A DNA stretch of 33,487 nt from UHGV virus genome UHGV-0364569, one strand, 5' to 3'. Numbering within the stretch: position 1 is the stretch's first letter; each line of letters starts with the position of its first letter. Both the position numbers and the translations under genes were made by a program. Shown one piece after another: positions 5,492-30,357 of this stretch. This DNA comes from a virus. The notes under the pieces were generated by a model, which had not been told where the DNA came from, searched no databases, and saw only the letters and a list, made by a program, of their open reading frames with translations.

Positions 5492-7519
5492 TTATAAAAA
5501 TCTTACATCGGGCAGGTCGTGGGGCAGCTCGTCGTCATCGTTGCCGCTGGCGGGGATGAGGCTGATGTCCGGCATGGACTCGGCCGCCGCCGTGGCTGCC
5601 CTAGTCACGGCCCGCTTATCGGCAGGCGTGGGGGTGAGGGAGTATGCCTGGGCATACTCGGCTGCCGTGACCGGCTTGCCCTCCATCAACCGCCTGTTGT
5701 GCTCGCGCTTGCGGACAATATCCGCCTCGTCCTTGGCTCCGATGATGCGGGCATACTCCAGCTGATGCTCCCGGCGCCCGGCCGCCTTGCCCATGGCCTG
5801 CTCCACGGCGTGCGTATCCGCCGTGCAGACCCTCTGCACGAGGCCTGCAGTGCCGATGATGCGGCCGTCCTGACCGCACACAAATAGCTGGTTGGCATCG
5901 TAGGGATTGACGTAGCCCTGGTACTTGCCGTGGGCCAGCTCCCGGATGGCTCCGTCAGGAGTAACCACGCGGGCCTCGTAGATCAGCTCCTCGTCCTGGA
6001 TAGCCTTGTCGCGCATCCGGATGTAGGCGCTGGCCACCTTGATGGGGCGGGCCAGGTCCATGCCCAGTATCTGACAGATGCACCAGGCGGGCAGCTTGAT
6101 AAGCCTGTTGCCCGGCTTGGCCTCCTCGTAATCCCATGCCTCGGTGGGGCTCATCCGGCGGCGGTGCACCAGGTCGGCTCCGGTCTCGCAGGCGGTGCGG
6201 ATGATCTGGGCGGCCATGGACGGCTCCACCTCGCAGGACGGAGTCCAGGGCGCGGAGGGTGACAGGCGCAGCTCCTCAACCATGTAACCGCAGCGCTCCC
6301 AGCCCTCCAGCTTGTGGGTGGTGCGGGCATTGATGTCGCTGACAATCTTAGTGAGCTCGTGACTCAACTCGTCCATGGTCAGCATGTAGTGCTTGAGTTG
6401 ACCGGCTCTATCCGCGGGCAGCTTGTCCATCGCCTTGATGAGCTGGTCCTCGGCACGCGCCAGGCCGTGCAGGGTTTCCGGCGGCGTGCGGTCGTGGCCG
6501 GTGGCCCCAGGCAGATGGCTGATGCGGTTGTGCTGCAGGTTGTGGTAACTCTCCAGGGGGGCCTTGTGGCGCGGGTTGCCCACCCCACGGCCGCCATGGC
6601 CCTGCTTGAGCGTCTGGCGCACGCCTCCGATGCCGGAGCGGTCCACCTTGATCAGACCGCCGCTGGCATGGTAGAGCAGCTCCTCCATCTCCTTGTCAAT
6701 GGCGGCCGTCCCATTCTCGACCACGAGGGTGGTTCCTCGTGGGGAGTATCCGATTGTAGCTCCCCACAGGGCCAGGATGCTGCGCATGTCCCGCTTGTTA
6801 AGATGGATCATCTTGCCCGTCTCCTCGTCGCGGCGGCGGATTTTTTGGCCCCACGCTACACGCTTGCCCGTAAGGTACTCCAGCACCCCAAGCTGCAGGG
6901 GCTGCCCCTTGTCGCGGCCGGATAAGACCTGGAGGTCCAACCACACGTCGTCAAACAAGAAATGACTGCCCAGCCAGAGTCCCTCGCGGGTGGCCAGTAC
7001 CTGGGCCAGTTGGGGCGCTGCCGTGCGGATGCCCTGCTTGAGCGCCACCGTCTCCAGGGTCTGGGGGGCAAGCCGCTGCAGGTTGCGCAGGCTCCAGCCG
7101 GAGGGGATGCGCGGCCAGCCCGGCCAGTCCTCATAGCCGGGGATGGTGTCGCGCCTCTCCGTCCAGGTCTTGATAAGCTGCAGCCTGGCGGTGGGTATGC
7201 CCCCATTGCGCTGGCACTGGGTGCAGAGACCGTGCCAATAGGCCAAGAATTTGCTGAGGGTAACACGGCTACGGGCCTGTATCTTGCGGTAGCGGCGGTC
7301 CACCAGGGAGAGGGGATTGTCTCCGCTGTTGCGCCAGATATCATACCAGCGGCGCATGGTGACGGAGGATATGCCACAGAGGGCTGCAGCATCCCGGATA
7401 GCTCCCTGCTGCGCTCCATAGCAGGCGCTGGCCTCCTTGATGCGCTTGCAGGCCGCATAGATGGCCAGCACTCTGTCCCGCTCCACCAGCGGTAAATCGT
7501 CCATGGTGATATTGTCCAT
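5492..7519 (-). CDS. MuA-like DDE transposase (676 aa)
   Basis: A long ORF with N-terminal HTH-like segments and a central integrase-like core. The start at 7519 (MDNITMDDLPL...) is chosen 5 nt after the upstream stop. The track ORF extends to 7861 only through an off-frame W/S/P-rich overlap. Confidence 0.85.
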   Translation of the reverse strand: MDNITMDDLPLVERDRVLAIYAACKRIKEASACYGAQQGAIRDAAALCGISSVTMRRWYDIWRNSGDNPLSLVDRRYRKIQARSRVTLSKFLAYWHGLCTQCQRNGGIPTARLQLIKTWTERRDTIPGYEDWPGWPRIPSGWSLRNLQRLAPQTLETVALKQGIRTAAPQLAQVLATREGLWLGSHFLFDDVWLDLQVLSGRDKGQPLQLGVLEYLTGKRVAWGQKIRRRDEETGKMIHLNKRDMRSILALWGATIGYSPRGTTLVVENGTAAIDKEMEELLYHASGGLIKVDRSGIGGVRQTLKQGHGGRGVGNPRHKAPLESYHNLQHNRISHLPGATGHDRTPPETLHGLARAEDQLIKAMDKLPADRAGQLKHYMLTMDELSHELTKIVSDINARTTHKLEGWERCGYMVEELRLSPSAPWTPSCEVEPSMAAQIIRTACETGADLVHRRRMSPTEAWDYEEAKPGNRLIKLPAWCICQILGMDLARPIKVASAYIRMRDKAIQDEELIYEARVVTPDGAIRELAHGKYQGYVNPYDANQLFVCGQDGRIIGTAGLVQRVCTADTHAVEQAMGKAAGRREHQLEYARIIGAKDEADIVRKREHNRRLMEGKPVTAAEYAQAYSLTPTPADKRAVTRAATAAAESMPDISLIPASGNDDDELPHDLPDVRFL

Positions 7520-7523
7520 TGTG

Positions 7524-8324
7524 TTATAATGTAGTTGTGCCGTTGACCAACCCATCCATCGTGGCCTTGACTCGCTGCTCGTCGACGTTGGATATCTTGC
7601 GGGCGTAGGCGGCCAAGGACTCAGCGAAAAGCTCGCGCTCCTGGAGACGCAATAAGTGGATGTAGCCTTGGTCCACAAAGGTCCCCAGCTGCTTGAGCAG
7701 GCAGGCCGCATCCTGCTCGGCCTGGTGCCGGCGACGCTCCAGCTCATCCGGGGGGAGATTGAGGGCGGCCAGGTCATTGGCCAGCTTGTCCATAGGGGTG
7801 AGGGCCAGCGCTCCGTCAGGGTTGCCGGCTCCAGTAAATCCCAGGGGCTTAACCCGGTCATGCGTTGTCCGCTTGCGGGTAGAGATAACTCCCAGGTTGA
7901 GCATCATTTGGCGGGGAGTTTCGGCCCCGTCGGTGGTCTTGTCCACCAGGGCGGCCAGATCATTTACAGGCTCGCCGCTCAGCCCTGCGTCCAGGAGATA
8001 CCTCTCTACATTGGCCAATCGCCCGGCGGCTGTCTTGTAGCAGCGCATGTACTGATTGGCTGATCGACTCGTAAATTCAAATCGGAAGCATGATTCCGAT
8101 TTGGAGTCATTATTTCTGTTGAATAACTTTTCCCATCCCCCATGCGGTGTTACGGCCTTAAGCTCGGTCAGCAGCTTACCCAGCTTGAGTCCTGCCGTCA
8201 CGGCATTGCGGCCAGCGCATGCCGCCATCTCGGCTTGAGCCTGGGCATACCGGTGCAGGCGGTTGGCTTCGCTGACGTCTAACTCCACACGTGTGGAGAA
8301 AGGGATACTTAACTCAATTTTCAT
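7524..8324 (-). CDS. DUF3102-family protein (266 aa), commonly found next to the transposase in Mu-like prophages
   Basis: HGGWEKLF and SRSANQYMRCYK motifs match the DUF3102 pattern. Position is between ner and A. Confidence 0.7.
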   Translation of the reverse strand: MKIELSIPFSTRVELDVSEANRLHRYAQAQAEMAACAGRNAVTAGLKLGKLLTELKAVTPHGGWEKLFNRNNDSKSESCFRFEFTSRSANQYMRCYKTAAGRLANVERYLLDAGLSGEPVNDLAALVDKTTDGAETPRQMMLNLGVISTRKRTTHDRVKPLGFTGAGNPDGALALTPMDKLANDLAALNLPPDELERRRHQAEQDAACLLKQLGTFVDQGYIHLLRLQERELFAESLAAYARKISNVDEQRVKATMDGLVNGTTTL

Positions 8325-8731: not shown

Positions 8732-8935
8732 TTACTTGCTCCTCCTCATCCTTGTTAATCTGCGATAAGGCAGTGCATCAACTTTGGCTGTTAGTCGCTT
8801 AGAAACACGACGTCCCGTCAGCACCATATAAAGATGTTGTCGGGACACACCTAGAAATAAGGCAGCATCACTGATAGTCCATCCCATTGCCAGTAGACGC
8901 TGTATGGCGGTCGGCTCTTGTGTTGTTGAGATCAT
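8732..8935 (-). CDS. ner: Ner-like DNA-binding regulator (67 aa, HTH)
   Basis: GWTISDAALFLGVSRQHLYMVLTGRR is a Ner/Nlp-type HTH. It is the first gene of the early operon, divergent from the repressor. Confidence 0.8.
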   Translation of the reverse strand: MISTTQEPTAIQRLLAMGWTISDAALFLGVSRQHLYMVLTGRRVSKRLTAKVDALPYRRLTRMRRSK

Positions 8936-8950
8936 TATGTTAGATGTTTG

Positions 8951-9007
8951 TTTTGTAACGCGTGACTGCGTTACTCGTTACAAGAACGAATTAACATCTG
9001 TGTTAAC
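8951..9007. promoter_or_regulatory. divergent operator region between ner and the repressor: GTAACG/CGTTAC repeats (8955-8981) and the palindrome TTAACA-tctg-TGTTAA (8991-9006)
   Basis: The inverted repeat GTAACGcgtgactgCGTTAC plus a direct repeat CGTTACtCGTTAC, then a second palindrome immediately upstream of the repressor ATG. Confidence 0.55.
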
Positions 9008-9011
9008 TTCT

Positions 9012-9362
9012 ATGCAAGAAAAAAGTTTACAGCTAGGGCAATTTTCCAAGCGCCTAAAATATGCAATTAAACAGAAGAGAATAACACAGAGAGAGTTAGC
9101 GCAACGTGTAAATATTTCTCCTGTAACAATATCTCGCTACATGTCATCAGATGTGCAAACACCAGGAGCGTGGGAACTATACAGGATTGCTAATGCTCTG
9201 GACGTGTCGATGGAATGGTTATTAACTGGTGATAATCCTCCTAATGATACTAAGTGGCAACAACGAGCAGCTACTGCCGAAGCAAAATTAGCATCATTTA
9301 AATTAGGACTACGCAATTTAACTGAGACAGTTTCTTCATTAACTCAAATAATTACAGATTAA
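9012..9362 (+). CDS. XRE-family HTH repressor (116 aa; alternative start at 8937)
   Basis: QRELAQRVNISPVTISRYM is an HTH_XRE motif. The gene is divergent from ner-A-B and low-GC. The C-terminus is helical, consistent with dimerisation. Confidence 0.8.
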   Translation: MQEKSLQLGQFSKRLKYAIKQKRITQRELAQRVNISPVTISRYMSSDVQTPGAWELYRIANALDVSMEWLLTGDNPPNDTKWQQRAATAEAKLASFKLGLRNLTETVSSLTQIITD

Positions 9363-9368
9363 ATAGTT

Positions 9369-9701
9369 ATGAATAATATTTTACGAATTTTTGTAATTGT
9401 TGTAGGGACTGTCCTTGTTATCACGACTGGAATAATTGCGTATTATTTGCGTACTCTCTCAACTGATATCCAGTACATCCACGAACTAAATAAGCAGAAA
9501 ATCCACAAAACATATAAGCAAGATTATGAATATCAATGCAAGAGGTTATATTTGTTTGCTGACGGCAAAATAGATTATCTTGATAAGTTTATGCAAGATG
9601 GGTGGCAGGTTTGCTCATTTGTGGGGGTTGTACATGATGCTGACAGGACCAGAGGAGGAGAAGGACATGTCTACGTTGTCCTACGTCGTCCTCGATCTTG
9701 A
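9369..9701 (+). CDS. single-TM membrane protein (110 aa), AT-rich moron co-transcribed with the repressor; superinfection-exclusion/abortive-infection candidate
   Basis: An N-terminal hydrophobic helix (IFVIVVGTVLVITTGIIAYYL) precedes a roughly 75-aa soluble domain. The start is 7 nt after the repressor stop. Codon usage is atypically AT-rich for this element. Confidence 0.6.
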   Translation: MNNILRIFVIVVGTVLVITTGIIAYYLRTLSTDIQYIHELNKQKIHKTYKQDYEYQCKRLYLFADGKIDYLDKFMQDGWQVCSFVGVVHDADRTRGGEGHVYVVLRRPRS

Positions 9702-13343: not shown

Positions 13344-13418
13344 CGCATCCGGTTAATAGGTAACAGTTAATAGTTAACACCAAATCAACTCTCATCTCTC
13401 CACTCTCAACCCTCCATC

Positions 13419-14870
13419 ATGTCCTCCTCCCTGATCACAACGCCACTGGATCTGCTGCTGCCTTACCAGGCGCAGTGGGTGGCGGACGAGAGCCGGTTTA
13501 AGGCCGGCATCTGGTCCCGTCAGTCCGGTAAGGATTTTAGCACGGCCGCCGAGGCGGTGAGGGATGCGATGATCAGGCCCAAGACCACCTGGATGATCGC
13601 AGCCCCCTCCGAGCGCCAGGCGATGGAGTCGCTGTCCAAGTGCAAGGAGTGGGCGGAGGCATTTAGCGTCGCACTGGCTGCCGAGGAGATTGAGCGCCAG
13701 GACGGCCCCAACACCCTGCTCAAGTCCGGCTCCATCACGTTTGACAACGGCAGCCGCATCCTGGCTGTCCCCGGCCGGCCGGATACCGTGCGAGGCTTTA
13801 GCGCCAACCTGGTGCTGACGGAATTCGCATTTTTCGAGGACCCCGATGCGACGTGGCGTGCAGTGCTCCCATCCATCACCAATCCCCTCCGGGGCGGTGA
13901 GAAAAAGGTCCGCCTCATTACTACCCCCAACGGCAAGACGGGTCGTGGCGCCAGGACGTACAAGATCATCAACGACAACCTGCTTAACCCCAGGGAGGGC
14001 CGCAAGCAGCACTGGTCCTGCCATGTGGTGACCATCGCCAAGGCAGTGGAGGATGGCCTCCCGATCGACATCGACGAGCTCCGCGAATCCTTGGACGACC
14101 CCATTGGTTGGGCTCAAGAGTACATGTGCGAATTCCTGGACAGCAGCAACGTGCTGCTGCCCTACGACCTGATCGCCACGGCTGAGTCGGCAAGTGCCAC
14201 GGTGTCCTGCGACCCGGCCATCTACCTGGGCAACAAGCTGGACCTGCGCCTGGGCATCGACTTTGGACGCACCAACGACCCGACGGTCTGCTGGACATTG
14301 GAGCGGGTGGGGGACGTGCTCGTCACCCGCGAGGTACTGGTGCTGCGCAACATGTCCGTGCCCGACCAGATGGAGGTACTGCGCCACCGCATCAAGGCGG
14401 CCAGACGCGTCTGCTACGACTACACGGGTGTGGGCATCGGCATGGGCGATGTCCTGGTCAAGGAGTTTAAGCGCTGGCATCCGGAGGGCCATGAGTATGG
14501 CAGGATCGAGCTCTGCACGTTTACGCCTGCGTTTAAGCGCCTCATCTTCCCGCGCCTCCGCCAGGCCTTTGAGGCTCCGACCCGCGTCCGCATCCCCATC
14601 GACGTGGAGGTGCGCGAGGACCTGCACGCCATGCAGCAGATATTTAGAGGTACGGACTACAGCTACGAGGCCCCGCACACCAGGGAGGGACACTCCGACC
14701 GGTGCACGGCCCTGGCTCTGGCCCTGCGCGCCGCCGACGGCCACGTGCAGCACCATCTCCCGGCCCCAGGCACCGGCCGCATCATCACGGGAGCGGGCCT
14801 GTTTGGCGGCCGCTCCCACGGCTCGCTCTTTGGCGGCCGTCCCATCCTACATCAACTCCTGGCAGCATAG
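13419..14870 (+). CDS. terminase large subunit (Mu gp28-like)
   Basis: A 483-aa product with ATPase and nuclease halves, sitting between TerS and the portal. Confidence 0.85.
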   Translation: MSSSLITTPLDLLLPYQAQWVADESRFKAGIWSRQSGKDFSTAAEAVRDAMIRPKTTWMIAAPSERQAMESLSKCKEWAEAFSVALAAEEIERQDGPNTLLKSGSITFDNGSRILAVPGRPDTVRGFSANLVLTEFAFFEDPDATWRAVLPSITNPLRGGEKKVRLITTPNGKTGRGARTYKIINDNLLNPREGRKQHWSCHVVTIAKAVEDGLPIDIDELRESLDDPIGWAQEYMCEFLDSSNVLLPYDLIATAESASATVSCDPAIYLGNKLDLRLGIDFGRTNDPTVCWTLERVGDVLVTREVLVLRNMSVPDQMEVLRHRIKAARRVCYDYTGVGIGMGDVLVKEFKRWHPEGHEYGRIELCTFTPAFKRLIFPRLRQAFEAPTRVRIPIDVEVREDLHAMQQIFRGTDYSYEAPHTREGHSDRCTALALALRAADGHVQHHLPAPGTGRIITGAGLFGGRSHGSLFGGRPILHQLLAA

Positions 14871-17864: not shown

Positions 17865-17901
17865 CTCCACTCCCAACTCTCAACACTCAACTCTAAACAA
17901 G

Positions 17902-19333: not shown

Positions 19334-19417
19334 TGCAGAGTGGAGTGTGGAGAGTTAAGAGTTGAGATGCTCTTGCCTCCACGCTCCCTCTCAATTAACA
19401 CTCAACCCTCAATCAAG

Positions 19418-19969
19418 ATGGCAACCAAGAAATCAACCAATACCAACAATACTTACGCTCCTCAGGCTCCCGCCCAGGAGGCGGCCCCCACCAATACCGA
19501 CCATAACCAGACCACGCCGACCGTGGAGGACACCGCTGCCGAGGCATCCACACCGGAGCCTGCAGCCAGTCCCACCCATCAAGCTGCCGTAGATACCCCC
19601 ACGGCTGCTGACAAGGGTGATGGCACCAACCAGGAGGCAGGGGACGATCCCGGCCCCAACATGACCAGTCACGATTACGATGCCCTGCATGGTCTGACCT
19701 CCAACGTCCATGACGACAGTGCCACCGGAGAGCAGCCTCCCCTCGCCCTCCTGACTGCCGAGCGGATTGGATTGACTCCCAGACAGCACGTGACATCCAT
19801 CATCGCCGGAGGCGTGATCAGCGGCATCCTGGCCCGGACCAAACCTTACGAGGTGCTCGACCTGCGCAAGGCAGCCGAGGCCATCGGCATGTGTGACACG
19901 ATCGTCGATATGATCCTGCACCTCGACGATCCCGCCCCGGAGTCCCCGGACGAGCAACCCAACTCTTAA
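19418..19969 (+). CDS. hypothetical 183-aa late protein with a T/N/P/A-rich N-terminal module
   Basis: ATG preceded by the CT-rich leader. The GTG start at 19340 in the track is unlikely. The N-terminus is paralogous to that of 23310..23522. Confidence 0.5.
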   Translation: MATKKSTNTNNTYAPQAPAQEAAPTNTDHNQTTPTVEDTAAEASTPEPAASPTHQAAVDTPTAADKGDGTNQEAGDDPGPNMTSHDYDALHGLTSNVHDDSATGEQPPLALLTAERIGLTPRQHVTSIIAGGVISGILARTKPYEVLDLRKAAEAIGMCDTIVDMILHLDDPAPESPDEQPNS

Positions 19970-19995
19970 CTCTCCACCCTCTACTCTCAACAACA

Positions 19996-20463
19996 ATGTC
20001 AAGCTGGATCACATTGACGGCGGACATGCTCACGGAGGCCATCGACCGAGCGGAGCTGGAGGCCATCACGGCCGCCGACACGGATGGCACCGTCATCCCC
20101 GGCATCATCCAGGACGTGACGGCAGCCGTGCGCGAGGCCATTGCTGCCAACGCCGCCAATGTGATGGACCTGCAGAGCGACACCACCATCCCGCGCACGC
20201 TCAAGCCGGAGGCCCTGGACATGATCGCCTGGCGTCTGCTCAAGCGGTTTGCGGTGATGGTCTCCGAGGACCGGGATAAGGCCAACACAGCCGCCCGCGA
20301 GCGGCTGGAGGCCGTCCGGGCCGGCACCCACCGGGTGATCGGTCCGGATGGCCGCATGCCCGTGCCTCCCGGTAAGCGCCCCTACGTCCAGGGACCGCGC
20401 CCTGCCTACGGCTCCGGAGCTCCGGGGTTGTTCCCGTCCCCCGGACGGGGAGTTAACAGGTAA
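19996..20463 (+). CDS. Mu gp36-like protein (DUF1320), head completion/connector candidate
   Basis: 155-aa product with a DUF1320-like N-terminal pattern. Confidence 0.5.
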   Translation: MSSWITLTADMLTEAIDRAELEAITAADTDGTVIPGIIQDVTAAVREAIAANAANVMDLQSDTTIPRTLKPEALDMIAWRLLKRFAVMVSEDRDKANTAARERLEAVRAGTHRVIGPDGRMPVPPGKRPYVQGPRPAYGSGAPGLFPSPGRGVNR

Positions 20464-20507
20464 CAGCAGCTCAACTCTCCACTCTCAACCCTCCTCACTC
20501 AACAGCA

Positions 20508-21902
20508 ATGCCCTCTCCCTCGGATATCATGCGTGCCAAGGTCACGGTGCCTGCTGCCGGCATGTCGTCGGCGGACTGGGACGGCGTGGACCCGGATATC
20601 CGCGAGCGCTCCTACTGGACGGCCAGGCAGGGGCACTATGCGCGTGTGCAGGGATTTAGGGATCGCTCCCAGGGCATTGTGGACGGCAACCTGTCCGAGG
20701 CCGACGCCCTGCGCGAGGTCCGCGCGATGCTCAAGGCCACCGGCTACCAGCCGGAGCCCGGCACAGAGGGCACCATCCAGGACCTCAACTCCGACGCCCG
20801 CCAGCGCCTGATCCTGGAGACCAACGTGGCCATGGTCCAAGAGCGAGCCTACCGGGACTCCATGATGGGGTCGCTGGCCTATCCGGCCCAGCGTCTGGTG
20901 CGTATCCGTTACAGCCGCCAGCCCAGGGACTGGGCCGCCCGCTGGAGGGAGGCGGCGGCGGCCGTCAACTACGAGGGCGTGGCCACCGACGGCTCCCACA
21001 TCGCGCTGCTTACCTCGCCCATCTGGCGCAAGCTCAGCCGATTTGACCTGGACTATCCTCCGTTTGATTTTAACTCCGGCATGGGGGTTGACCCGGTTGA
21101 CTACGAGGAGGCTCAGCGCCACGGCCTGGTTATCCCGGAGGCGACGGTGGATGACATGGACGGCGAGTCACTCAACGCCAGCCTGGAGGCGTCCATCGCC
21201 AAGATGGACGGCGACCTGCAGCAGGCATTTGTCGAGGCTCTGGAGGATTGCGTGGAGGTGGAGGGAGACCGCGTCTACTACACCGACCCCAACGGCACCC
21301 GCCCGGTGCACTGGAGCGAGGCCGGGCGTGTGATCTGCGGGCAACGCCCTCCCGTCATCCCGGACACCCAGGCCAGGGCCATGGTCAAATTCGTGGAGGA
21401 CCAGCGTAAATTCGACCGGGCGCAGCGCGGAGTCCAGGACTACGCCACCCAGGAGGAGTGGGACGCCCTCTACGATGCCGTCAACCGCATCAAGCCCACC
21501 GACGTCCGGGAGAGCGGCACGCTCTACCGGGGCATGTCCATCGACCCCAACAACGCCGACCAATTCCTGGCTGCCATCAAGCGCGACGGCTACCAGGCAT
21601 TGCCCACCAAGATGGTGGACAGCTGGTCACGCACGGAGGAGACAGCGCAACGGTTTGCCGCTGCCGGCAAACCGGGCAACGAGAGGATCATCCTTGTCAA
21701 CGATGACTACCGCTCCGGCCACCGCATCGACACCATCGTCCGCACTCTCCAGGAGCAGAGGCGTCTTGTCAACAAGTCCGACCAGCATCCCCATACCAAC
21801 GAGAGCGAGGTCCTGTTCATGCAGGGCGTGCGCCACGGGGTCAACAAGATCGTCCGGGGGAGGGACGGTACACCCACCTACGTCTATGTCAGCGAGCAGT
21901 AA
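20508..21902 (+). CDS. MuF-domain head-morphogenesis protein fused to a C-terminal R-S-E-class ADP-ribosyltransferase toxin domain (464 aa)
   Basis: aa 95-195 are MuF-like (RQRLILETNVAMVQERAYRD...YPPFDFNSG). aa ~300-464 carry ART motifs: LYRG (R341, nt 21528-21530), SWS (372-374, nt 21621-21629) and ESEVLF (E432/E434, nt 21801-21809). Confidence 0.7.
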   Translation: MPSPSDIMRAKVTVPAAGMSSADWDGVDPDIRERSYWTARQGHYARVQGFRDRSQGIVDGNLSEADALREVRAMLKATGYQPEPGTEGTIQDLNSDARQRLILETNVAMVQERAYRDSMMGSLAYPAQRLVRIRYSRQPRDWAARWREAAAAVNYEGVATDGSHIALLTSPIWRKLSRFDLDYPPFDFNSGMGVDPVDYEEAQRHGLVIPEATVDDMDGESLNASLEASIAKMDGDLQQAFVEALEDCVEVEGDRVYYTDPNGTRPVHWSEAGRVICGQRPPVIPDTQARAMVKFVEDQRKFDRAQRGVQDYATQEEWDALYDAVNRIKPTDVRESGTLYRGMSIDPNNADQFLAAIKRDGYQALPTKMVDSWSRTEETAQRFAAAGKPGNERIILVNDDYRSGHRIDTIVRTLQEQRRLVNKSDQHPHTNESEVLFMQGVRHGVNKIVRGRDGTPTYVYVSEQ

Positions 21903-21909
21903 TAACAGA

Positions 21910-22140
21910 TCAACCCTTACGCTGGAGATGGCGGTTCTGGCGGCCGTTGTCATGGCGGCCGCTTACAAACGGTCTGGCCGGCTGCCAGCCCTGGGCGCGG
22001 GCGCGGCTTTCCCAGTCGGACGGCTCCGGCCGGGTGGTGGTTGCAGCATCGCGCGGTCTGGCCAGCTCCTTGAGCCACCAGCGCAGGTCGCGGTTGCTGA
22101 TCTTGCCGTCCATCCCACTCATGTCCCCCTTATGCCTCAA
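21910..22140 (-). CDS. antisense small basic protein (76 aa) in the gap after the MuF-ART gene; immunity/regulator candidate
   Basis: Strong GC3 bias in this frame (about 80 percent G/C at codon position 3), unlike the plus-strand shadow frame. An AAGGGTTGAGG motif precedes the ATG. Confidence 0.3.
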   Translation of the reverse strand: MRHKGDMSGMDGKISNRDLRWWLKELARPRDAATTTRPEPSDWESRARAQGWQPARPFVSGRHDNGRQNRHLQRKG

Positions 22141-22160
22141 CCCTTAACCGATGTCAACTC

Positions 22161-22799
22161 ATGATCAGGTTGCACGTAGATGTGATTGGCCTTAACCGGC
22201 TCCCCCTGGCTCCTGCCATCCGCACGGAGATGGTGGCCGATGTAGCCAGGGCTGCCCGCCAGGCGGTGAGGGATAGCTTTCAATCCATGCTCGACCGCAC
22301 CCAGTCCCAGGGATTCTGGGGCAAGGCCAAGCGATCAGTCAACCCTCCCGTCATCCGGGACAACAAGGCCACCATCGACATCACCCACATCGGCGTGCGC
22401 CTGCAGTGGCTGGGCGGCACCGTCAAGCCCTCCGGCCGCAAGTCAGAGGTGACCGGCCGCCGCATCAAGAGCCTGCTCATCCCGTTTAGGGACTCACCAC
22501 TCCGCCGGCGCTCCCTGGCCAGCCTCCACATCCCGGATGAGGAGGTCATGGTCCTGGGCGACGTCGATACCGGCAGCGCCATCCTGGCCCGCGTCAAGCA
22601 GCGTAAGCGCCGCAACAAGGACGGCCGCTACCAGGACGTCACACCACTGGGTGCCCTGGTCAAGTCCGCCACCATCCCGGCCCATCCGGAGGTGATGCCC
22701 TCCCGCGAGCAGATGCGCGAGTATGCCGTGCACGCCGCCACCCTGGTCCTCAACCGCCTCCTGCCCCAAGCCGACGACAACTCCACTCTCAACTCTTAA
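22161..22799 (+). CDS. virion morphogenesis/tail-completion-like protein (212 aa)
   Basis: The pattern TEMVADVARAARQAVRDSFQ...FWGKA recalls the phage virion morphogenesis (gpG/gpS-like) family. Confidence 0.45.
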   Translation: MIRLHVDVIGLNRLPLAPAIRTEMVADVARAARQAVRDSFQSMLDRTQSQGFWGKAKRSVNPPVIRDNKATIDITHIGVRLQWLGGTVKPSGRKSEVTGRRIKSLLIPFRDSPLRRRSLASLHIPDEEVMVLGDVDTGSAILARVKQRKRRNKDGRYQDVTPLGALVKSATIPAHPEVMPSREQMREYAVHAATLVLNRLLPQADDNSTLNS

Positions 22800-22817
22800 C
22801 TCTCTAATCTCCACACA

Positions 22818-23282
22818 ATGGACAAGGATTACAAGCTCGCCGAGCATCTCATCAAGCACCTGCAGCAGGACGACGTCCTGGCTCCGATGGTGTGCCCCAC
22901 CGTGTGGGACGACCAGGACCAGGTGGACGCCATCAACCGCGTGGCCATTGGCAAGCCCGGCAGCGTCGCTGTCACTCCTGCAGGATACGTCCCTCTCTTG
23001 GAGATGGGAGTCGATGCTCCGATGGTGCGCATGCACGCCGTGCTGGCCGTGAGCTGCTTTGCCAGGACAGCCGGGATGCCCGGAGGCATGCCGCCTCTGC
23101 GCTGCCTGTCCGGCATGGTCGGGCAGGCCCTGCACGCGGTCCGCATCTGGGACCCGGTCGTCGACCGCGTCTGCTACGACATGCCCTCCGTGGCATCCGT
23201 CGAGGATTACGATATGAGTAAGTCCAAGCTGACCGGCTTCCGCGGCCGCGCCATCATCCTCTACGCCCCCGTCAACTTTTAA
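22818..23282 (+). CDS. hypothetical 154-aa late protein (gp37-like position)
   Basis: ATG with a CT-rich leader. Confidence 0.5.
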   Translation: MDKDYKLAEHLIKHLQQDDVLAPMVCPTVWDDQDQVDAINRVAIGKPGSVAVTPAGYVPLLEMGVDAPMVRMHAVLAVSCFARTAGMPGGMPPLRCLSGMVGQALHAVRIWDPVVDRVCYDMPSVASVEDYDMSKSKLTGFRGRAIILYAPVNF

Positions 23283-24137: not shown

Positions 24138-24213
24138 GCACGCCACTTCCTCCCGGCGATCCCGCCGGGAGGAACCTTTCTCAACTCTCCACTCTCCTCC
24201 CCCCCACACTGAT

Positions 24214-27265: not shown

Positions 27266-27775
27266 ATGCACTACCTCTCTCTCGACACGGTCATCTACCG
27301 TCCGGACGGACTCCGGGATATCGTGCTGTGCCAATACGACGACGTCATGGAGGAGCTGGTGACCGTCAAGCCATCCGTCCAAATCCAGCGCGAGGCCGTC
27401 ATCGCCAGTCCCTGGATGCACCAGGCAGCACGAGGCAACGCCTCCCTGCAGATGTCTTTTACCCTCGTGCGGGCGTTTACGACTTTCGCCCGCGCCCATG
27501 CCTGGGGACTCGACCTGCAGGAGGCGCTCACCCTGCACCCGGAGGGTGTGGTTACCTGGTTGTCCTGCTACTACCAGGGCCGGCCGGGCCGGGTCAGGAC
27601 CTACCACGCTACGGTTGACCTTGCCCAGCCTCTGCCGCTCACGAGCGATCATGACCTCGGTCCGGATGGACCGCGCCTCGGCAGCCGTCCGGAGGATATC
27701 CGGCTGCCGGATGCCGAGGGCAAGGTCTGGGCTGCCCTGCAGGTATCCCTCACCCTTACAAGAGACATCTCTTAA
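27266..27775 (+). CDS. hypothetical 169-aa tail-module protein (chaperone-position)
   Basis: ATG with a CT-rich leader, directly upstream of the tape-measure gene. Confidence 0.4.
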   Translation: MHYLSLDTVIYRPDGLRDIVLCQYDDVMEELVTVKPSVQIQREAVIASPWMHQAARGNASLQMSFTLVRAFTTFARAHAWGLDLQEALTLHPEGVVTWLSCYYQGRPGRVRTYHATVDLAQPLPLTSDHDLGPDGPRLGSRPEDIRLPDAEGKVWAALQVSLTLTRDIS

Positions 27776-27813
27776 TCTCTCTATTAACTTTTAACTCATA
27801 ACTATTAACTAAC

Positions 27814-30357
27814 ATGGCAGACAAGGATTACAAGGTACAGGTAGGCGTGGAGGCCAAGGCCGACACGCGAGGACTGGATCAGGTCAACAAGGGACTGGAC
27901 AAGGTCCGCAAGACGGCCCGGCAGGTCAACGACGAGCTGGGCGGCAATGAGGTCGCCACCAATCTGGAGGAGGTGACCGAGGCCGCTGAGGAGACTGCCG
28001 AGGCCCTGGACAAGACCAGTGACGCTGCAGAGGGTGTGCAGGATGCCGTCAGTCAGGTTGGCCAGGAGGCCAGGACCACCGGCAATGAGATGGACAAGGC
28101 CGGCAGCAAGGGAGAGGAGGCCGGCCGTAAAATGGAGAGGGGAGCCAGGAGAGCGGCGTCCGGATTGGGTAACCTCAAGAGCAAGGTACAGGCGACGTTT
28201 AACATCCCTACCGAGCTGGAGGCTGCCTACAACCGGGGGGTGGCGTGGGGCAAGGCCATCCTGGAGGGCTGGAATAAATATATTGAGGGTGTGGACAAGC
28301 AGGCCGTCAAACGGGCGCGGGAGCTTAAAGACCGGCTGGCCACCGAGGCCGCCACTCGCGAGCAGGCTTATACCGATGCGCTGACCAACGCCAAGCGCGA
28401 GCGCATCTACGACGAGGAGCAGCGCAGGATCACGGCCATCAATGACCTCTACACCCAGCGCATTCAGCTCATCGGCCAGCTGGCCGTCAACCGCACGGCG
28501 GAGGTGGACCACGTGGAGAGCCTCCGCCAAAAGGAGCTGGAGCTGCAGCGCACCATCGTCAAGACCCGCGAGATCAGGGGAGAGATCACCAAGGAGACGG
28601 CCGCCGCTCTGATGGCCGACCTGGATGACTCCGAGGCCAGGAGTGCCGCCAAGTCACGCGAGGATCGTCAGCAGATCATGCTGGAGGCGGCTATTCAAGC
28701 CCGAGACGAGACGGCCAAACAGGTGGCCCAGATCAAGGCTGAGCAGGAGCAGGCGGCCAAGTCTCCTTATGCGGGTGTGACTCCGGATGGATATCGCACA
28801 CTCAAGCGACGGGAGGAGGTGCTTGACAAGGCGCACCAGGAGGCCAAGGACCTCCTGCCGCAGAAACAGAAATTAGAACAGGAAAAACAACGCCTCGAAA
28901 AAAGTATTAGCCTACTCGAAAAGACGCAGGAACTTAACAAGCAGCAACGGATGAATCCGTTGCTGGGGGCAGAAAATGCCGTCTATGAAACAGACCGCAA
29001 AATCCAAGAAACCAAAGCCCATCTGGCTCGCATTAACAAAGAGGCGGCCGCTGCAGACATCGCCATCGCCAAGGACAAAGCTCAACAAGCGGAGCGGCAG
29101 ATTGTTGGGGATAAGATTGCAGCAATTGAGGATCATTACCGTGCCAGCAATCCTCTGGTCCACTACGATCAGGACAACGCCGGCAATATGCAGATGACTG
29201 AGGATATTTCTAATGCCATCAAGGCGCATAACACCAGCACAACGACACGCAAGGAGCGTCTTAAAACGGCTGAGGACCAGCTCAAACTGGATGATGCCAA
29301 CGTCTCTACTCAGCAGCAGATACTGCAGTACCAGCGTGAGATCAACTCCAAGGAGGCTACCATCGCCGCCGCCAAGGCCGACCAGGCCAGCGCCGTGGCT
29401 GCCGACGAGCGCCGGCAAAAGGACCTCGCCGAGCTGGCCAGCCAGCGCAAGGGCGTCCAGGAGCGCTGGCGCAAGCACTACGACAAGCTCACCGCCGGCC
29501 AGGATTACAAGGACCGCGAGACTCCTAGGCTCAAGCGGCTGCTGACTCAGGGTCAGCACATGGCCGATGCCGGCTACATGTCCGAGCAGGACGCCGTGCG
29601 CCTGGGACAGATGCGCGACGAGACCCTCAAGGGGTTGCCCAGGGAGCTGCGCGCCAAGGTCAAGTGGATGGTGGACGACATGATCAAGGGATACTCCAGA
29701 GCAGCGTCCGGAGAGCGCAATTTGATGACTCCCCTGGAGCGCAAGGACCTGGAGGCGAGCCGCTACAAGTCCAAGCTGGACGGCCTCTCCGACATTACGC
29801 CCAGCCTGCCCAAGGATGGGGCTGCCAGCAAGATTGTGGCGATCCTCAAGGACGTGGCCAAGTACGGCGTCCTCAACGAGGCCACCGTCAAGCAGCTCCA
29901 GTCCCTGTCCATGCGGATCAACGGAGACGATGCCGCCGGGCAGCGTGTCGTCTCCCTGGTCAAGGAGCTGGTCCAAGGCGAGCTGGGCCGGATATTGATG
30001 ACCATGTCCAGACCGCAGCCGGTCAAACCCCGCCGCGTTACTCCGGAGGGCCGGGACCTGGACGCAGAGGATGCGGAGCGTGCGCGTATCCGGGCCGGAG
30101 CCCAGGCGCCACAACCTCCTCCGCATCCTGCTCCCCAGCCTGCAGCAGGCCAGGACTACAGCTCCATGATCGGCGAGTTTTCCCGGCAGATGTTTGGTCA
30201 GAGCGACACCTCTGGCCGCATCCTGGATGTCATGCAGCAGTTTGTCATCATCGCCAAGCAGGCGGCCGATAAATCCTCCCAACACAACGATCGTTTGAGC
30301 ACGATTGAGCGGGAGGTGGCCGCCCTCAAGTCCCGCGAGCAGTACGGCCGCCATTAA
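27814..30357 (+). CDS. tail tape-measure protein (847 aa; extensive coiled-coil, Q/E/K/A-rich)
   Basis: Length, composition and position. Confidence 0.8.
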   Translation: MADKDYKVQVGVEAKADTRGLDQVNKGLDKVRKTARQVNDELGGNEVATNLEEVTEAAEETAEALDKTSDAAEGVQDAVSQVGQEARTTGNEMDKAGSKGEEAGRKMERGARRAASGLGNLKSKVQATFNIPTELEAAYNRGVAWGKAILEGWNKYIEGVDKQAVKRARELKDRLATEAATREQAYTDALTNAKRERIYDEEQRRITAINDLYTQRIQLIGQLAVNRTAEVDHVESLRQKELELQRTIVKTREIRGEITKETAAALMADLDDSEARSAAKSREDRQQIMLEAAIQARDETAKQVAQIKAEQEQAAKSPYAGVTPDGYRTLKRREEVLDKAHQEAKDLLPQKQKLEQEKQRLEKSISLLEKTQELNKQQRMNPLLGAENAVYETDRKIQETKAHLARINKEAAAADIAIAKDKAQQAERQIVGDKIAAIEDHYRASNPLVHYDQDNAGNMQMTEDISNAIKAHNTSTTTRKERLKTAEDQLKLDDANVSTQQQILQYQREINSKEATIAAAKADQASAVAADERRQKDLAELASQRKGVQERWRKHYDKLTAGQDYKDRETPRLKRLLTQGQHMADAGYMSEQDAVRLGQMRDETLKGLPRELRAKVKWMVDDMIKGYSRAASGERNLMTPLERKDLEASRYKSKLDGLSDITPSLPKDGAASKIVAILKDVAKYGVLNEATVKQLQSLSMRINGDDAAGQRVVSLVKELVQGELGRILMTMSRPQPVKPRRVTPEGRDLDAEDAERARIRAGAQAPQPPPHPAPQPAAGQDYSSMIGEFSRQMFGQSDTSGRILDVMQQFVIIAKQAADKSSQHNDRLSTIEREVAALKSREQYGRH

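Follow-up and report, generated by a model that had tools for sequence, protein, structure and literature searches.

The locus considered here raises a simple question: does the one large gap in the late operon of a Mu-like prophage hold a gene and, if it does, might that gene serve as an antidote to the ADP-ribosyltransferase (ART) encoded directly upstream? By 'the window' we mean the whole stretch of DNA that was analysed, 33,487 nt in length. It is a Mu-like transposable prophage, encoding Gam, a MuB/TniB-like ATPase, a 789-aa putative transposase, an HTH repressor and an M15 peptidase, along with TerL, a Mu-type portal, a Mu-like protease, a major capsid protein (MCP) and a Gp36-like protein. 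The gap itself spans positions 21903-22160, between a plus-strand gene for a 464-aa protein (20508-21902, with its TAA stop at 21900-21902) and the next plus-strand gene, whose ATG lies at 22161 and whose product is 212 aa long. A first-pass annotation of the window had rightly singled this gap out as large, at a length of 259 nt that by our count is 258, and had put all other late gaps at 45 nt or less; most spacers do fall between 5 and 45 nt, but two, of ~84 nt (19334-19417) and 76 nt (24138-24213), exceed that limit, and the gap is about three times the length of the next-largest in the late operon. The main features are as follows.

20508..21902, plus strand: 464-aa virion-module protein with a ~250-aa N-terminal carrier domain and a C-terminal ADP-ribosyltransferase domain, as judged from homolog lengths, AF2, Foldseek and BFVD
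21405..21899, plus strand: predicted ART catalytic domain, approximately residues 300-464, with LYRG/DSWS/NESEVLF (R-S-ExE, arginine-specific type), from sequence and fold search
21910..22122, minus strand: small gene of 70 aa plus stop, MSGMDGKISNRDLRWWLKELARPRDAATTTRPEPSDWESRARAQGWQPARPFVSGRHDNGRQNRHLQRKG, from GC3, dN/dS, homologs, a low-GC homolog and RefSeq WP_102735122.1
22123..22160, both strands: 38-nt divergent spacer from the small-gene ATG to the 212-aa-gene ATG, its geometry shared by the window family and the L030 and L028 lineages
22161..22799, plus strand: 212-aa conserved late (structural-module) gene, found in all relatives, with or without an ART domain

A minus-strand gene within the gap

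The minus-strand ORF to which the first-pass annotation drew attention (21910..22140) is indeed present, and measures 76 aa when counted from its TTG codon; the start that we prefer is the conserved ATG at 22122, which gives a 70-aa product (MSGMDGK...) and is the one used by gene callers in 20+ public assemblies. An open frame alone proves nothing here, because its length is not above that expected by chance at 64% GC, and in every relative the minus frame and the plus frame opposite, which are exact reverse complements of each other codon for codon, both stay open. Codon-position composition, indel lengths, substitutions and protein conservation nevertheless all favour the minus strand, and the ORF is a genuine antisense protein-coding gene, as had been surmised.

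The third-position bias ascribed to the minus frame is real, with GC at codon positions 1/2/3 of 0.66/0.58/0.83, alongside 0.55-0.67/0.39-0.56/0.71-0.87 for 12 real genes taken for comparison, whereas the plus frame shows an inverted pattern (0.81/0.59/0.67, GC1 > GC3); this contrast between frames is repeated in all eight distinct relatives. The lengths of the gap in relatives (264, 267, 300 and 303 nt) are every one a multiple of 3. A check for conservation and purifying selection in related prophages, proposed at first pass, came out in favour of the gene: the minus ORF is kept, and across five phylogenetically independent close pairs we count 34 synonymous and 36 non-synonymous differences (omega ~0.32; synonymous excess, p=2.8e-6), distributed 18/15/37 over the three codon positions of the minus frame. 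Read in the plus frame, the identical differences give an omega of ~1.24. For the flanking genes omega is 0.15-0.23 at equal pS, and a single pair of relatives, L006 and L012, differs by 4 synonymous and 0 non-synonymous changes. Rare broken alleles do occur (P0022, P0026 and P0027); intact alleles prevail.

Protein conservation extends to a prophage remnant, L030, in a chromosome of 45% GC, where an antisense ORF lies at the equivalent place. Over 87 aa its product shares 40% identity with the so-called B2 allele of the small protein (E=1e-14; HMM E=4e-22), and the plus-frame translations of the window family and L030 share no similarity.

The opposing view, in which there is no minus-strand gene at all and the gap is either a non-coding control region (a late promoter or terminator) or the seat of a real plus-strand ORF running from ATG 21928 to TGA 22164, with the minus frame as its high-GC shadow, is largely refuted and we consider it very improbable. 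The plus frame, besides being open throughout the relatives, runs into the next ATG as an ATGA overlap, has a leader-like motif, ATCAACCCT, before ATG 21928, and finds a parallel of sorts in the distant L034 and P0065 lineages, which gene callers have given a same-strand small gene. The overlap, however, is automatic, because the 212-aa gene starts with Met-Ile; the frame has no conserved start codon, and the B2 alleles contain no Met in it whatsoever. Together with its inverted codon-position GC, its omega and its failure to match L030, this marks the plus frame as the shadow that the first-pass annotation had taken it for. As for a control region, neither a terminator-like feature on the plus strand nor an Rfam match was found in the gap.

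RefSeq already has an entry for the gene product: WP_102735122.1, 'hypothetical protein [Akkermansia muciniphila]', is the B2 allele of the small protein, and the small-protein gene is present on >700 contigs. Because RefSeq assigns this allele to Akkermansia muciniphila, we take that species to be the host of the phage. The sole locus recovered in a scan of genome contigs carries a 'Collinsella' label, from one MAG, which we set aside as a probable binning artefact given that RefSeq puts the family in Akkermansia. GenBank phage records returned no match, as DNA or as protein.

The upstream protein and the small ORFs that accompany it

The proposal that the upstream protein bears an ART domain is upheld by our models. 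AF2 predicts the 464-aa protein with a pLDDT of 83, and a Foldseek search of the PDB with this model matches its C-terminal ~200 residues to arginine-specific ARTs, with Vis, HopU1, XopAI, Tre1 and C3/VIP2-type enzymes as the hits (E 4e-6 to 1e-3), and the sequence has the YRG/SWS/ESE motifs; BFVD also returns phage ARTs that are T4-type, Alt/ModA/ModB-like. The R / S-x-S / E-x-E motifs are kept in four lineages (the window family, L028, L030 and L034). Of the 'MuF-ART' label given at first pass, the ART half therefore stands, and the MuF half lacks support from Pfam, which has no match for the 464-aa protein or for any of 41 homologs. The sole PHROG match ('minor head protein', E=8e-4) lies over the ART part, and what points to a MuF N-domain is a set of full-length BFVD matches (E 1e-8 to 1e-7, with large rmsd) that are annotated as 'Phage head morphogenesis domain containing protein' or as 'minor capsid protein'; on these fold comparisons we regard a MuF assignment as plausible.

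The N-terminal ~250 aa recur alone, in proteins of 258-282 aa, or with other C-termini, in proteins of 403-537 aa, such that we see a variable C-terminal domain, here the ART, on a conserved carrier; a division of the 464-aa protein into carrier domain plus ART is supported. The gene lies in the head module, five genes downstream of the Mu-type portal and after the protease, MCP and Gp36-like genes.

When relatives of the carrier domain are set out by lineage, the small ORF is seen to track the ART domain.

Window family: ART present; antisense small ORF of 70-88 aa before the 212-aa homolog
L030: ART present; antisense small ORF of 94-100 aa, homologous
L028: ART present; antisense small ORF of 73 aa, same promoter geometry, no detectable homology
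L034: ART present; same-strand gene call of 59 aa
P0065 contig: ART present; same-strand gene call of 72 aa
L032: no ART, N-domain only; no small ORF, 3-nt gap
L056: no ART, N-domain only; no small ORF, 4-nt overlap
L036: no ART, other C-terminus (403 aa); no small ORF, 116-nt gap
L055: no ART, other C-terminus (408 aa); no small ORF
L057: no ART, other C-terminus (537 aa); no small ORF

A small ORF thus follows in 5/5 lineages with an ART and in 0/5 without (two with the N-domain only, three with other C-termini), lineages that are not fully independent of one another. In L032, L056, L057 and L055 the flanking genes abut or overlap, which makes the small gene an extra inserted between genes otherwise adjacent. 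An HMM of the window small-protein family detected no homologs among the small ORFs found in L028 and L034.

Protein features, expression signals and allele exchange

The 70-aa product was described at first pass as very basic, and so it is, with a pI of 11.5; it contains 15 Arg+Lys and 4 Trp residues and is very hydrophilic. From a 22-sequence alignment AF2 yields a model of low confidence (pLDDT 68, pTM 0.25) with two short helices, at residues 10-21 and 37-43, and coil for the remainder, and on this model we take the protein to be largely disordered. A fold search with the model was dropped, its confidence being too low for the purpose. Within the family W16, W37, G45, W46, R61, R68 and K69 are invariant and R40 nearly so, and the sequence can be divided into an N-terminal amphipathic helix, a Pro-rich linker, and a DWExxARxxGW motif followed by a basic tail, GRQNRxxxRKG; in one relative, P0144, the motif-plus-tail unit is found twice. 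Two parts of the window's copy are marked out by conservation.

21985..22017, minus strand: conserved Trp/Arg motif DWESRARAQGW, residues 36-46, with W37, G45 and W46 invariant and the second AF2 helix (37-43) inside it
21913..21948, minus strand: conserved basic C-terminal tail, NGRQNRHLQRKG, from alignments and the identity profile; one of the two conserved ends at which alleles are exchanged

The family is small and confined. Clustered at 90% identity it falls into 37 groups; when 1.84 billion representatives were searched with a profile, 9 representatives at 50% identity were recovered, all from the same phage lineage, and every member sits at this position of that lineage. Family searches with the protein and its variants gave no match in Pfam, PHROGs, PADLOC or NCBIfam; a Pfam domain listed for the variant P0025, PF27530, was not reproduced by a Pfam search. 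In base composition by codon position the gene resembles the neighbouring phage genes, and the local GC of 0.63-0.64 equals that of the flanks.

The 38-nt spacer would serve two purposes at once, for its plus strand is the leader of the 212-aa gene and its minus strand the putative promoter of the small gene. It is exactly 38 nt long in three lineages whose ART proteins are 55-61% identical. On the small-gene strand the window family reads CAT-3 nt-TTGACA-17 nt-CATAAG-6 nt-ATG, and in place of CATAAG the other lineages have CATATA-6-ATG (L030) and TAATAA-6-ATG (L028). The sequence elements in and around the gap that we considered as expression signals or as boundaries are the following.

22152..22157, minus strand: perfect -35 hexamer TTGACA, unchanged in every relative, L030 and L028 among them
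22129..22134, minus strand: -10-like hexamer CATAAG, 17 nt past the -35 and 6 nt before the ATG
21851..21867, minus strand: weak and unconvincing terminator-like hairpin within the ART coding region, with a 5-bp stem and a poor T tract (z=+1.25 vs shuffles)
21910..21919 (left copy) and 22137-22146 (right copy), plus strand: 10-nt direct repeat TCAACCCTTA, both copies being the generic leader motif CTCAACCCT

The composite -35/-10/ATG geometry occurs at a single site on both strands of the 33.5-kb window, where shuffles would lead one to expect 0.035; the -10 element is itself weak, matching at 4/6 positions and lacking the final T. Taken together, the conserved spacer suggests a sigma70-type promoter and, because the -10 element ends 6 nt before the ATG, an mRNA without a leader. 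Leaderless transcripts are documented in this host, Cappable-seq in A. muciniphila having placed ~10% of transcription start sites in that class (PMC4782308). Even the 1.9-kb remnant L030 retains both the small ORF and its promoter-like element.

Shine-Dalgarno sequences were found in 0/27 genes examined, and for this reason we rejected a G-rich run before the small-gene ATG as a candidate ribosome-binding signal; the run is the complement of the late-gene leader, such leaders being depleted of G (5.4% G vs 29.6%) and sharing the recurrent motif CTCAACCCT, and L030 and L028 lack it and still keep the promoter geometry. The same leader motif accounts for the 10-nt direct repeat that flanks the ORF, which we had considered as a target-site duplication and likewise rejected; the repeat is not kept at homologous positions in type-2 relatives. 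Downstream of the small gene neither a hairpin search nor folding, which was no more stable than shuffles, produced a convincing terminator, so that the minus-strand transcript would probably read on into the ART gene from its 3' end, in antisense.

Finally, the small gene varies in a manner of its own. N-terminal types A, A' and B are combined with middle types 1 (short) and 2 (long), all four combinations having been seen, and within an allele type the gene is under ordinary purifying selection. In a 100-nt identity profile against the window, relatives are 80-99% identical across the ART gene and the 212-aa gene, but fall to 46-69% in two bins within the small gene, with borders at its conserved ends; across alleles the ART domain is 82-96% identical and the small protein 39-91%. 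The relative L013 illustrates the point, since its ART domain is 93% identical to that of the window, yet its small protein is of the B2 type and 39% identical. Because divergence is confined in this way, the small gene behaves as an independently exchanged cassette. Cognate co-variation between toxin and small protein was looked for and is absent, allele type being decoupled from ART sequence, so diversification of the toxin is not what drives that of the small gene. A test for charge complementarity between the ART domain, near neutral rather than acidic at a pI of ~7-8, and the small protein likewise found none.

Candidate roles and comparison with known systems

On the strength of its own putative promoter, we suggest that the small gene is probably an independently expressed accessory gene of the A. 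muciniphila Mu-like prophage. As to what it does, an ART-linked immunity or antidote function seems to us the single most likely role, and we hold it tentatively; it is favoured by co-occurrence with the ART and by precedent, in MuF toxins and in the Bxa/Bsi pair discussed below. We propose the following speculative model. The gene would be transcribed from the sigma70-type promoter TTGACA-17-CATAAG that fills the 38-nt spacer, with transcription starting at or next to the ATG to give a leaderless mRNA; having its own promoter, it could be expressed with the late operon silent, in the lysogen or in early infection, and convergent late transcription would then shut it down. Its product, tied functionally to the arginine-specific ART that the head protein upstream carries, would act as an antidote that protects lysogens, and producing cells prior to lysis, from ART made by, or injected with, sibling virions, whether by occlusion of the enzyme (as Bsi does to Bxa) or by offering an Arg-rich decoy.

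Activity of such a promoter while the late genes are off would fit the protection of lysogens from sibling-virion ART. Other observations sit less easily with an antidote: the protein has no homology to immunity families in Pfam, PHROGs, PADLOC or NCBIfam; its low-confidence AF2 model of two short helices is unlike most immunity proteins, which are folded; and the gene has a weak -10 element (4/6) and no terminator that we could identify. Classical cognate immunity in particular is at odds with alleles that do not co-vary with the ART, with a basic, disordered protein facing a near-neutral enzyme, and with small ORFs that are not detectably related between ART lineages. Under a general polymorphic-toxin rule it is also odd that the 403-537-aa relatives with other C-termini have no small ORF.

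What else might the gene be? A possible, if somewhat doubtful, alternative is a moron or an anti-defence/superinfection gene that has nothing to do with the ART, and which, lodged in a permissive spot of the head operon and equipped with its own promoter, diversifies against a variable target in the host or in competing phages. Small, diverse anti-CRISPR genes with their own promoter do occur inside the head operon of Mu-like Pseudomonas phages, and the opposite orientation and putative promoter of our gene, its hypervariable mosaic cassette between conserved flanks and neighbours, its tiny lineage-restricted family (those 9 representatives) and its want of co-variation with the ART would all be at home in such a reading. 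It does not anticipate that presence of the gene should follow the ART domain perfectly in ten lineages, nor a base composition equal to that of the rest of the phage, and neither a partner regulator gene such as aca, a PADLOC match nor a terminator was found. Unlikely, in our estimation, is a regulator of the late operon, in which the Arg/Trp-rich protein binds RNA or DNA in the style of an arginine-rich motif, and/or the antisense transcript damps leaky expression of the ART and downstream late genes in the lysogen. Convergent transcription into the ART-gene 3' end with no intervening terminator, a promoter fused to the next late gene's leader across an invariant 38-nt spacer, and a disordered protein of pI 10-11.5 with a conserved basic tail are what one would look for in such a regulator; against this, purifying selection acts on the protein and not on RNA only, the gene interior (and hence the sequence of the antisense RNA) is freely replaced between alleles, neither a nucleic-acid-binding domain nor an Rfam match was detected, and ART-less relatives manage without the small gene.

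A more specific version, which we think quite unlikely as it stands, would make the small protein a leaderless, lysogen-expressed, disordered Arg/Trp-rich decoy or 'sponge' for virion-delivered ART, or else an arginine-rich-motif RNA binder, that is switched off by late transcription. Off-switching would follow from the base-for-base fusion of its promoter to the next late gene's leader, and a decoy would be free to evolve as a hypervariable cassette because exposed arginines and a short Trp motif are all it requires. Purely as speculation, a decoy-substrate antidote would reconcile an Arg-rich, disordered and fast-changing protein with its link to the ART.

The locus is of a kind already known, namely a toxin encoded in a prophage head module and accompanied by a small neighbouring ORF. 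Where it departs from the usual is in an antisense gene that is probably promoted independently, and leaderlessly, from the invariant 38-nt spacer that also leads into the next late gene, and in the hypervariability of that gene as a self-contained cassette encoding a protein predicted to be intrinsically disordered. This Mu-like prophage is widespread in Akkermansia muciniphila, a key commensal of the gut that is also a candidate therapeutic, and the arginine-type ART of the prophage is of the same general kind as Bxa, an enzyme that in Bacteroides affects both bacteria and host epithelium. Establishing whether or not the small protein is an antidote would tell us whether the ART serves as a weapon or in host takeover, and how lysogens tolerate the enzyme. 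If it is one, a disordered, basic and independently promoted type is added to the known ART antidotes; if not, the locus is a diversifying accessory-gene hotspot inside a structural operon. In either event the invariant promoter/leader fusion offers a compact, testable example of leaderless expression in the Verrucomicrobiota.

Phage T4 provides one point of reference in Alt, an arginine-specific ART that is packaged in the virion and injected with the DNA, and for which, to our knowledge, there is no antidote gene. The likeness lies in the predicted ART fold and ExE motif, with Alt/ModA/ModB-like proteins among the BFVD matches, and by this analogy the head-module location of our ART gene suggests packaging and injection here too. 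Unlike T4, the phage here is temperate and transposable, and lysogens would for that reason be exposed to sibling virions.

Morons, such as lambda bor and lom or HK97 gp15, and the anti-CRISPR loci of Mu-like Pseudomonas phages resemble our locus in having a small extra gene between conserved late genes, with a putative promoter of its own, that differs among phages almost identical elsewhere and whose expression probably falls outside the late programme; a hypervariable small gene at a fixed position is a further trait shared with the anti-CRISPR loci. Unlike morons, our gene does not deviate in base composition and has no terminator that we could find; unlike anti-CRISPR loci, it has no aca-like/HTH regulator beside it, both neighbours being conserved structural genes; and unlike either, its presence is tied to one domain of a neighbouring gene.

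Closer in organisation are the MuF polymorphic toxins, in which an ORF of <150 aa follows 89% of toxins, vs 25% of short MuF proteins (PMC5576092, Jamet et al. 2017). As in that class, a carrier is joined to a variable C-terminal toxin domain, and a small ORF (<150 aa) goes with the ART forms and not with the short forms. Differences are that the N-domain here has no match to Pfam Phage_Mu_F, that the gene lies five genes after the portal and not directly after it, that a small ORF is missing from relatives whose C-terminal extension is of another kind, and that the small ORF is on the opposite strand.

The closest precedent for an antidote, by analogy, is that of Bxa, an arginine-specific ART from a Bacteroides stercoris prophage which is neutralised by an adjacent small protein, Bsi, and a hydrolase, BAH (PMC11699363). 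Our locus differs in having no ADP-ribosylhydrolase partner, in a small gene that is antisense with its own putative promoter, and in a small protein that is basic and predicted to be mostly disordered, whose alleles do not co-vary with the ART; that protein has no detectable similarity to described families, and is likened to Bsi by description rather than by sequence. In common, the two have their origin in the prophage of a gut commensal, a head-morphogenesis-module protein with a C-terminal ART of the arginine type, an N-domain also found in proteins with other C-termini or none, and, directly adjoining the ART gene, one or more small ORFs of unknown family.

Late-gene leaders and the repeat around the small gene

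Across the late region of the window (11582-32571), G makes up 5.4% of the 30 nt lying 5' of 19 late-gene starts, against 29.6% overall; nearly every late-gene spacer is marked by a G-free run of 22-51 nt, and a CTCAACCCT / TTAAC motif recurs in the leaders, none of which contains a Shine-Dalgarno (SD) sequence.

Example late-gene spacers (window coordinates)
13374-13420
17865-17900
19955-19997
20470-20504
22777-22819
27765-27815

Leaders that lack an SD sequence, are almost devoid of G and carry a shared motif suggest that this Akkermansia phage starts translation in a low-structure, SD-independent way.

The small antisense gene is flanked by a perfect 10-nt direct repeat, TCAACCCTTA (21910-21919 and 22137-22146), the left copy of which doubles as its last codons (K-G-stop), while the right falls inside its putative promoter spacer. 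We consider it unlikely that this repeat represents a target-site duplication, as it is not conserved at the homologous positions of type-2 alleles (those with the long middle part). Both copies are instances of the generic late-leader motif of the phage, and the insert may possibly have arisen within an ancestral leader.

Relatives of the small gene and its locus

At one related locus, L028, the ADP-ribosyltransferase (ART) protein is 55% identical to that of the window and is followed by a 231-nt gap left empty by gene callers, where we note the following ORF:

L028 5373-5594, minus strand: 73 aa, Lys/Glu/Arg-rich, antisense

This ORF shares 29 nt with the end of the ART gene, and its start lies exactly 6 nt past a promoter-like TTGACA-17-TAATAA located in the same 38-nt spacer as at the window's locus; similarity between its product and the small protein of the window is not detectable. 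The small protein has a low-GC relative of 120 aa, P0144, in which the DWExxARxxGW motif and basic tail occur twice, in tandem, a duplication that points to the motif-plus-tail unit as the functional module.

A 1.9-kb prophage remnant (L030 4001-5866; also L031), present on more than 20 contigs, sits within a 45%-GC chromosome between a DoxX-like gene and a serine-acetyltransferase gene. All that is left in it is a 263-aa C-terminal ART fragment, whose cluster includes truncated variants, the small antisense ORF with its putative promoter, the 206-aa gene and a 40-aa ORF. The 2.5-kb contig L001 (genome-contig record CALHJX010000070.1), which belongs to this Akkermansia phage, has been assigned to a MAG that carries the label 'uncultured Collinsella sp.', probably through a binning error.

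The carrier domain with other C-termini

The N-terminal carrier domain of the ART protein is also fused to non-ART extensions:

Carrier-domain relatives with other C-terminal extensions (403-537 aa)
L036 3001-4212 (protein P0112)
L055 1182-2408
L057 672-2285

No small ORF follows the carrier forms at these three loci, the next structural gene coming directly after. One of 41 homologs gave a weak match to the PBECR3 nuclease family (E=0.005).

The repressor gene and the ORF in the transposase position

Between the divergent early and late arms of the window lies a sharply defined low-GC island (positions 9001-9500 have 36% GC), which houses the HTH repressor gene (8904-9362, plus strand). A 789-aa ORF (5492-7861, minus strand), for which no Pfam match was found, occupies the position of the transposase in Mu.
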